A DNA stretch of 64,000 nt from a virus. Shown piece after piece: positions 34,490-35,557 of this stretch. Below the pieces are notes generated by a model that had not been told where the DNA came from, searched no databases, and saw only the letters and a program-made list of their open reading frames with translations. The stretch is from positions 37,885-101,884 of the IMG/VR virus record IMGVR_UViG_3300040801_005040. One strand, given 5' to 3'. Every line of letters starts with the position of its first letter. Positions within the stretch are counted from its first letter, which is position 1. A program made the translations under genes and the position numbers.

Positions 34490-34839
34490 TTATTCCCCTC
34501 TCAGTAAAATGGGAGGGGAATTTATGGGCCCGTATTGGCTTTGACAATGGTACAGGTTTTTCTATATTCAGCCGTGAGAGATAACACGCTAAAACTAAGG
34601 TGAATTAAGTAAATGGAGACATTTCTCAAATTCAGGCGAACATGAAAGTAGTTGATATGATTATCAATGAAGATGTTCAGGTGGCTGCGTAAACTGCCTT
34701 ATTATTTACGCTTAATTTAGGATTAGACACCCTTCAGTGGAGTTTCCTGTTTCTCTAAAAAGCAGGTGGTGGAGCAACTAGTTTTGCCCTAAGCTGTAAT
34801 AAAATATAGATTAATCATATTATTGGACGAGGGTTCGAT

Positions 34840-35508
34840 TAATTATAGTCGACTTAGAAGGTAACTTCTATGACAAAACTGGATGAATTGCTGGAAAGCT
34901 AAGTGTGAAAACATATGCCAATCAGCAGCCAAGCTTACTGGAAGAAGTAAGAAGGTTCAGAGACTAGGGATACTACGGTAAGCCCACAGCGTCCAGCTCC
35001 TATTTATAGGATGATGATATAGTCCGATACTCTTAAGAAATTAGGAGGAGAAAAAGTTATTAATTACTTTTTCTCGTTTTTGTAAAAGTTCTTTGGTGTA
35101 TTTTCCATTTCTTGGAGTTAAAGAATGTAGTTCTTTTAATAATGATATTCTGTGTACTTTTTTTGAATGTTTAGATTTTAGTTTTGATACTATTAATAAA
35201 CATTTTGGAAAATAAGTATATTTTAAATCATAATTATCAGTATGATTTTTTTCTTTAGCTTTTTTCTTAGATATAAATCCTTTTATTTTTAATTCTTTTA
35301 ATATAAAAGATTGGATATCTTCAAGTATGGATTTTTCATTATTGGAAAAATTTAATTGTACAGTTATTTCTTCATTTCTATGATTTTTAATAGCTGTAAT
35401 TGATCCATCAGCATCAAAGAACCCGGATATATAGTTCCAATTCATATTTATAATATAGTTTTGGACTAAGGTATAAATAATACCTATATCCTGCAAAAAT
35501 AACACTTG
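34840..35508 (+). mobile_element. Group I intron (IA-like, 669 nt) in the tmRNA T-loop
   Basis: P1 with U34839-G34848 wobble; P2 TAGAAG-GTAA-CTTCTA; P3 CTGGATG/CGTCCAG; P4 TTGCTG/CAGCAG; TCAGAGACTA (34957-66) with TAGTCC (35020-25) for P7; extra hairpin between P7 and P3'; P9 with GAAA loop; terminal G35508. Confidence 0.9.
35041..35445 (-). CDS. Single-motif LAGLIDADG homing endonuclease (134 aa), antisense within the intron
   Basis: MNWNYISGFFDADGSITA...LNFSNNEKSILEDIQSF..G.I...K.K; start at ATG 35445 because the longer ORF runs into the tmRNA 3' exon. Confidence 0.88.
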   Translation of the reverse strand: MNWNYISGFFDADGSITAIKNHRNEEITVQLNFSNNEKSILEDIQSFILKELKIKGFISKKKAKEKNHTDNYDLKYTYFPKCLLIVSKLKSKHSKKVHRISLLKELHSLTPRNGKYTKELLQKREKVINNFFSS

Positions 35509-35533
35509 TCCCTCCGGGTCCACTAAAACTAAC

Positions 35534-35557
35534 AAGGAGCTTCATAGCTCCTTTTTT
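35534..35557 (+). terminator. Rho-independent terminator after tmRNA
   Basis: AAGGAGC-TTCATA-GCTCCTT-TTTT. Confidence 0.8.

Follow-up and report, generated by a model that had tools for sequence, protein, structure and literature searches.

A group I intron interrupts a tmRNA-like gene in the viral DNA analyzed here, a 64,000-nt stretch (the window) that is part of a 101,884-bp IMG/VR virus record, and an intact, conserved LAGLIDADG nuclease gene lies antisense within this intron, its stop codon overlapping the P9 hairpin of the ribozyme. In our judgment, this is fairly probably a mobile intron at T-loop position 7 of a phage tmRNA, carrying between P9 and the 3′ splice site an inverted nuclease cassette composed of a promoter-like box, a hairpin, and the open reading frame (ORF). 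The carrier is probably an uncultured phage of ~102 kb with a Bacteroidota host. Sequence comparison established that the identical layout recurs in independent phage and bacterial loci. Taken as a whole, the interpretation first made from the letters of this DNA (the original prediction) was partly supported.

In the mechanism we propose, the nuclease gene would be driven by its own minus-strand promoter, which would uncouple nuclease expression from the tmRNA transcript. The protein would dimerize like I-CreI or I-TnaI and make cuts with a 4-nt stagger, within or next to the T-loop, in tmRNA genes that lack the intron. Repair of the break would then carry the intron together with its gene over to co-infecting phages, and perhaps to host ssrA as well. 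Because the intron splits the site, the resident copy would be immune.

Intron and host gene

The intron was recognized on the plus strand by the Rfam Intron_gpI model (RF00028), which matched at 34831-35047 over its full length with 103.4 bits (cut-off, 50 bits), and the core from P3 to P9 is present (Table 1). As read from the sequence, P1 pairs 34835-34839 with 34848-34852 and places a U.G pair at the splice site, U-1 being 34839, while the terminal G of the intron is 35508. With 34839 joined to 35509, the T stem (5 bp), the T-loop (7 nt), and the acceptor stem (7 bp) are all restored. The intron lies between T-loop nucleotides 6 and 7, which makes it a position 7 insertion, and splicing is predicted at 34839/35508. 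The original prediction of an antisense nuclease gene inside a tmRNA intron was borne out.

Table 1 Features of the tmRNA-like gene, its intron, and the antisense nuclease gene (positions in the window).
Feature	Position	Strand	Basis and remarks
tmRNA-like gene, whole	34526-35522	+	Split by group I intron at T-loop position 7
tmRNA-like 5′ exon	34526..34839	+	Acceptor 5′ strand, tag reading frame, T stem 5′ strand, T-loop nucleotides 1-6; Rfam tmRNA match
Group I intron, 669 nt	34840..35508	+	T-loop position 7; Rfam Intron_gpI; P1 U.G, terminal G
Internal guide sequence (3′ strand of P1)	34848..34852	+	Pairs with 34835-34839; like pattern in position-7 relatives
P9 hairpin, last ribozyme-core element	35030..35047	+	Rfam alignment structure line, MFE fold
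Single-motif LAGLIDADG homing endonuclease gene, 134 aa	35041..35445	-	Pfam, 152 homologues, AlphaFold2, Foldseek; antisense to intron
10-bp hairpin then T run, P9.1-like or terminator-like	35048..35075	+	Consensus scan, MFE fold; other strand is nuclease C-terminus
LAGLIDADG motif YISGFFDADGS, residues 5-15	35401..35433	-	Profile alignment; invariant in 25 family members
Hairpin between candidate promoter and ATG	35463..35491	-	MFE -11.6 kcal/mol
TAnnTTTG box, TATTTTTG, candidate Bacteroidota-type -7 element	35494..35501	-	Sequence; candidate only
tmRNA 3′ exon	35509..35522	+	T-loop nucleotide 7, T stem 3′ strand, acceptor 3′ strand, discriminator A; sequence and splice mapping
8-bp hairpin, terminator-like score on both strands	35534..35553	.	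Consensus scan; would end tmRNA transcript; upstream of nuclease's candidate promoter

In the Rfam alignment, P9 pairs 35030-35036 with 35041-35047 around a GAAA loop. The hairpin that directly follows it scores as terminator-like on the tmRNA strand and, if active, would end the pre-tmRNA before the 3′ exon. A 9-bp long-range helix (35076-35084/35492-35500) that would loop out the ORF appeared in the MFE fold, but its duplex energies were no better than those of shuffled sequences (flank-to-flank z of -0.4 in the window, and likewise unremarkable in most relatives), so this helix is not claimed.

The identification of the host gene as a tmRNA is good, if imperfect. Its 5′ exon matched the Rfam tmRNA model from 34526 with 33.2 bits (E = 6.7e-12), below the cut-off of 47 bits, as a 3′-truncated match cut by the intron (the search was cut at 34839). 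The acceptor stem pairs 34526-34532 with 35515-35521 over 7 bp and contains the alanine identity pair G3.U70 (G34528 opposite T35519). The tag reading frame is long and closes with two Ala codons and a TAA stop (34690-34692). The gene is followed by CTA (35523-35525) and not by CCA; CCA being incompletely encoded, the 3′ CCA would need post-transcriptional completion. ARAGORN called no tmRNA in the window or in the computationally spliced exons at thresholds down to 70%, and this failure with or without the intron marks the tmRNA as divergent. From its sequence, it could be a non-standard or an inactive tmRNA.

Contigs from RNA libraries (three metatranscriptome runs of one microbial-mat study), and from one DNA run too, match the 5′ exon at 34539-34840 with 100% identity. 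In one of these microbial-mat contigs, the match stops at the predicted 5′ splice site and 3 further letters are left unaligned, too little for calling splicing. This check used contigs; those from the RNA libraries cover the 5′ exon only and include no exon junction, and they are thus mute on splicing and on an antisense transcript.

Relatives of the nuclease and its proposed target site

A protein search returned 152 relatives, mostly 133-134 aa long and 45-60% identical to the nuclease of the window. No match was found by tblastn of the nuclease against 50,697 GenBank phage records, and blastn of the locus matched only short conserved pieces of intron core in unrelated phages. Pattern searches supplied 43 loci on viral contigs and another 16 in genomes; their intron cores were located with Rfam and with an nhmmer profile built from the Rfam hits, and splice sites were set from the T-arm halves. 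Once duplicates had been removed, 38 distinct mapped loci were available, and in every one the nuclease family was found at a tmRNA gene. The bacterial carriers are nearly all Bacteroidota.

The antisense arrangement is not singular: the window shares it with 17 other distinct loci, in which the gene lies antisense inside an intron at T-loop position 3, 7, or 8 and the ORF ends in P9. It is the commonest form among the viral-contig loci, and two of its carriers are Flavobacteriaceae MAGs (L055 and L056), where the nuclease locus holds the genome's only tmRNA above the cut-off. At 11 loci, all at position 3, the gene is inside the intron in sense orientation and its stop codon lies 0-6 nt from the terminal G. 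The other layouts are free-standing. At four loci, the gene is in sense orientation and closely follows the 3′ exon of a tmRNA whose intron, at position 7, has no ORF. At three loci, it is antisense and lies right behind the CCA end of a tmRNA that carries an ORF-less intron at position 3, and at two (L010 and L012), it is antisense and neighbors a tmRNA that has no intron and whose T-loop is non-canonical. Free-standing copies beside a tmRNA whose T-loop is split by an ORF-less intron include L003, L005, L013, L045, L046, and L049. In five of the sense forms (L004, L008, and L050-L052), the terminal G of the intron is also the final base of the nuclease stop codon, one nucleotide being shared by the coding sequence and the 3′ splice site.

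In the protein tree, most antisense-in-intron copies form one clade (100/100). The sequence from the window clusters with L002 and L029 (87/76) and is placed among sense forms, in the tree's other half. The well-supported branches require at least two layout changes. A tree of the intron core (FastTree, ~215 nt, no support values) had too poor a resolution for testing separate histories of intron and nuclease.

According to the original prediction, the intronless site is an inverted repeat suited to a homodimer. The repeat is real, consisting only of the 5-bp T stem around the 7-nt loop, but the fit to a homodimer is weak: 5 of 11 pairs are symmetric about an axis that passes through the base pair at G57, and all axes placed between base pairs give at most 5 of 12 symmetric pairs. 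Dimers of the I-CreI type act on 22-bp sites whose symmetry axis falls between base pairs.

An uninterrupted 22-mer identical to the spliced T arm of the window occurs in at least 118 viral contigs and, once each, in 15 of the 151 sampled genomes of the Flavobacteriaceae, the family of L056; a reversed control of the 22-mer gave none in these 151 genomes. As far as sequence goes, the nuclease could therefore cut the tmRNA genes of other phages or the ssrA of a host, and host ssrA may be among its natural targets. Indirect support for the T-loop as the target comes from the use of subsites 3, 7, and 8, from the free-standing copies beside tmRNA genes with an ORF-less T-loop intron, and from the altered loops of L010 and L012. 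T-loop positions 3 and 7 are four nucleotides apart, a spacing that equals the LAGLIDADG cleavage stagger; we note this as a lead only.

Relatives have introns with or without the nuclease gene. Two neighboring proteins of the window, used as queries for syntenic phages, found none and hence no empty-site counterpart; mobility is inferred from the family and not from the window's own lineage.

Several of these loci bear on where the nuclease binds. Instead of the T-loop, it might recognize the 3′ end of the tmRNA gene, meaning the 3′ strand of the acceptor together with CCA and the trailer. The family would then be primarily a free-standing element of the 3′ flank, repeatedly captured by a nearby intron. 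Just past the CCA end, five relatives lie antisense to the tmRNA and four in sense. At L013 and at L046 (2430-2925), the free-standing cassette is flanked by a second copy of the tmRNA's last 12-15 nt, which looks like an insertion footprint at the tmRNA 3′ end. Remote homologues are also found in the gap of permuted tmRNA genes, which corresponds to the position right after CCA. Against this, the nuclease gene lies within a T-loop intron, at least ~20 nt from the tmRNA 3′ end, at 28 distinct mapped loci; homologues lying always outside the intron, the pattern that the original prediction had named as contrary to it, were thus not what was found. In the intronless carriers L010 and L012, moreover, it is the T-loop that is altered, whereas the acceptor and the CCA end are ordinary, which fits immunity through the T-loop. 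The T-loop and the tmRNA 3′ end also lie so close together that a single ~22-bp recognition site could reach into both. We therefore consider recognition of the 3′ end unlikely and retain the T-loop intron as the mobile unit.

At these two intronless loci (L010:402-1213 and L012:945-1740), the nuclease gene and the phage tmRNA directly adjoin each other in convergent orientation. The T-loop of this tmRNA reads AGTCGGAG between the usual stem halves and is not of the TTCGAnn type. By its sequence, this loop may be a cleavage-resistant target allele.

The remote homologues, with 22-30% identity, lie within ~200 nt of tmRNA genes, both permuted (L030, L031, L035, and L042) and standard (L032-L034, L037, L039, L040, and L044), and those of L030 (sense) and L042 (antisense) fall within the span of the permuted tmRNA match. 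The association with tmRNA consequently reaches past the intron-borne subfamily. Other RNAs were seen near these loci. The viral contig of L013 carries a full-length GOLLD RNA (1300-1714, Rfam 328 bits) ~0.8 kb from the nuclease/tmRNA locus, and tRNA-model matches of 104-120 nt, with room for an insertion or a small intron, occur near the tmRNA loci at L002:1438-1541, L017:3655-3761, L023:3515-3623, and L029:4230-4349.

The nuclease gene and its candidate promoter

The 134-aa single-motif LAGLIDADG ORF that had been read on the minus strand of the P9 region was recovered (ORF 35445..35041), and its protein begins MNWNYISGFFDADGS. Since the Rfam alignment places the P9 3′ strand at 35041-35047, the stop codon (35043-35041) falls within that strand, again as first described. 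The gene occupies the interval from P9 to the 3′ splice site, with 63 nt separating its ATG from the terminal G. An HMM search, proposed at the outset as a check, confirmed the family: Pfam LAGLIDADG_3 (PF14528) matched with 36.9 bits (E = 4.6e-9; cut-off, 22.5), and LAGLIDADG_1 (PF00961) scored just under its cut-off (22.6 vs 23.1).

All 24 positions that are invariant among 25 family members are kept in the protein of the window. One of them, Asp13, invariant in the 25 relatives, was aligned with the catalytic Asp20 of I-CreI in a profile alignment to I-CreI-derived chains. AlphaFold2, run with a 25-sequence alignment, predicted an alpha-beta-beta-alpha-beta-beta-alpha fold (H-E-E-H-E-E-H) with additional C-terminal helices at a mean pLDDT of 92.9. 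Foldseek matched this model with a probability of 1.00 to the halves of I-OnuI and to the homodimers I-TnaI and I-CreI; I-Vdi141I was also matched. The single motif and the chain length suggest that the nuclease forms a homodimer.

I-CreI comes from a Chlamydomonas chloroplast 23S intron and I-TnaI from a Thermotoga 23S intron. Like them, the nuclease of the window has one LAGLIDADG motif per chain, the same fold (TM 0.6-0.7), and an aligned catalytic Asp, and all three genes reside in group I introns that interrupt genes for structural RNAs. In contrast, it is only 12-18% identical to them, has 134 aa where they have 147-163 aa, and is encoded antisense, while their genes are sense in their introns.

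Its length raises the possibility that the ORF is in decay or has been domesticated and has lost the ability to move the intron, its product being either an inactive passenger or a maturase-like or DNA-binding protein devoid of nuclease activity. The chain is small compared with the 163 aa of I-CreI, homing endonuclease genes often degenerate after fixation (three relatives, L053, L054, and L059, are truncated), and LAGLIDADG maturases exist, one PDB match (2ab5) being named an mRNA maturase. We find this reading rather improbable. The chain of the solved homodimer I-TnaI has just 147 residues, lengths in the family are tightly kept (131-140 aa), nearly all ORFs of the fetched loci are intact at 130-140 aa, and in the window the frame is intact, the catalytic Asp and every other family-invariant residue are retained, and the predicted fold is confident. 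Moreover, dN/dS was 0.17-0.44 among antisense pairs, below 0.45 throughout, showing at the level of sequence that related antisense copies are under purifying selection. The value for the window against L002 (0.77) is unusable, the comparison being ungapped and saturated. An active nuclease that moves the intron therefore stays our preferred reading.

The original prediction had also placed a -7-type box ~50 nt before the ATG and had found no -33 element. Both points stood: the TATTTTTG box (35501-35494, minus strand) is 49 nt upstream of the nuclease ATG, and a -33 element is absent from the candidate promoter. Promoter-like matches in this AT-rich stretch are near chance (9 vs 5.6 ± 2.1 in shuffles), and a sigma-70-type match on the minus strand at 35477-35450 was rejected as being at chance level. 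Relatives carry hairpins of differing stem sequence at the place equivalent to 35463-35491. In six of them (L020, L024, L026, L027, L028, and L036), a TAnnTTTG box is followed by CA and then by a hairpin at a similar distance from the ATG, which gives some comparative backing to the idea of a dedicated promoter. Another subgroup of relatives shows a TTGnnn-17-TAnAnT pattern instead of the TAnnTTTG box.

On the minus strand, the consensus scan found no terminator-like site past the ORF, up to the ribozyme core. A minus-strand transcript could hence enter the core as antisense RNA, and the ORF and P9 overlap on opposite strands, but it is very unlikely that the gene acts mainly through an RNA that pairs with the 3′ intron part of the pre-tmRNA and controls splicing or tmRNA supply, the regulatory role raised in the original prediction, as the same family occurs in sense orientation in 11 introns, so that the element does not need antisense pairing, and conservation at the protein level shows that selection has kept the coding function.

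Known systems and significance

Group I introns in the T-psi-C loop of tmRNA genes, some with LAGLIDADG homing endonuclease genes, are published (Williams 2002, cited in PMC1995217; PMC11915505). Of the 844 introns in the expanded tmRNA database, 23 carried a LAGLIDADG gene, which lay after P9 in 4 and in P7.1 in the other 19, and T-loop position 7 was the main intron site, with 3 and 8 as minor ones (PMC11915505). No statement on the orientation of the endonuclease genes was found in that work, and phage carriers are not discussed there. The window shares with this published intron-form tmRNA the host gene, position 7, the LAGLIDADG family, and the placement after P9, and its relatives also use the published minor sites 3 and 8. 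Points of difference are the antisense orientation of the nuclease gene in the window, its phage carrier, and its divergent tmRNA, which has a long tag, lacks a fully encoded CCA, and does not reach the Rfam cut-off.

Antisense endonuclease genes of the His-Cys box family are known from nuclear rDNA group I introns (Dsq.L2066 / I-DsqI and Dir.S956-2; PMC9548176). There too, the gene sits in a P9 extension, opposite to the ribozyme and to a non-coding host RNA, sense and antisense forms occur in related introns, and a separate internal promoter has been proposed. These cases differ from the window in their His-Cys box and in the eukaryotic separation of RNA polymerases I and II, polyadenylation, and spliceosomal introns, none of which applies in a phage. 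A limited literature search, which is no proof of absence, found no antisense endonuclease gene in a bacterial or phage group I intron.

In collaborative homing, a free-standing nuclease gene serves a neighboring intron. Examples are F-CphI, which neighbors the ORF-less psbA intron in cyanophage S-PM2, and, among T-even phages, mobE / nrdB (PMC2988022). The family described here resembles these cases in its copies just outside ORF-less tmRNA introns, others being inside, and these positions represent intermediate stages of the collaborative-homing model. The window itself differs from the F-CphI and mobE cases, as its gene is already inside the intron and both the nuclease family and the host gene are other ones.

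The window is therefore a real variant of a catalogued mobile element and moderately new, being one more member of a recurrent antisense variant that is apparently undescribed. One locus alone adds little to the catalogue. For annotation, intron-split phage tmRNAs of this kind are missed by ARAGORN and score under the Rfam cut-off, and the ORF on the opposite strand can lead gene callers to take the region for an ordinary gene.

Besides being a selfish element, the nuclease might serve as a phage weapon that cuts the host's uninterrupted ssrA while the phage's own intron-protected tmRNA does ribosome rescue. This is a long shot; the T arm of host ssrA can be identical over 22 bp. If it were true, phage-to-host homing would explain why the same nuclease family and related introns are found in Bacteroidota chromosomes and in phages, and the inverted cassette, having a promoter of its own, would allow the timing of nuclease expression to be set separately from that of the tmRNA.

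The antisense form poses a testable question, namely how a protein gene is expressed inside a heavily transcribed gene for a structured non-coding RNA and whether convergent transcription has any bearing on it. The family as a whole is a natural series of stages in which a free-standing nuclease gene and an ORF-less intron merge into a single mobile element. One and the same small nuclease is met as a free-standing gene next to an altered target, next to an intron without an ORF, or borne by the intron in either orientation, and all these layouts are found at one 7-nt loop of one RNA gene that is common to phages and their hosts.
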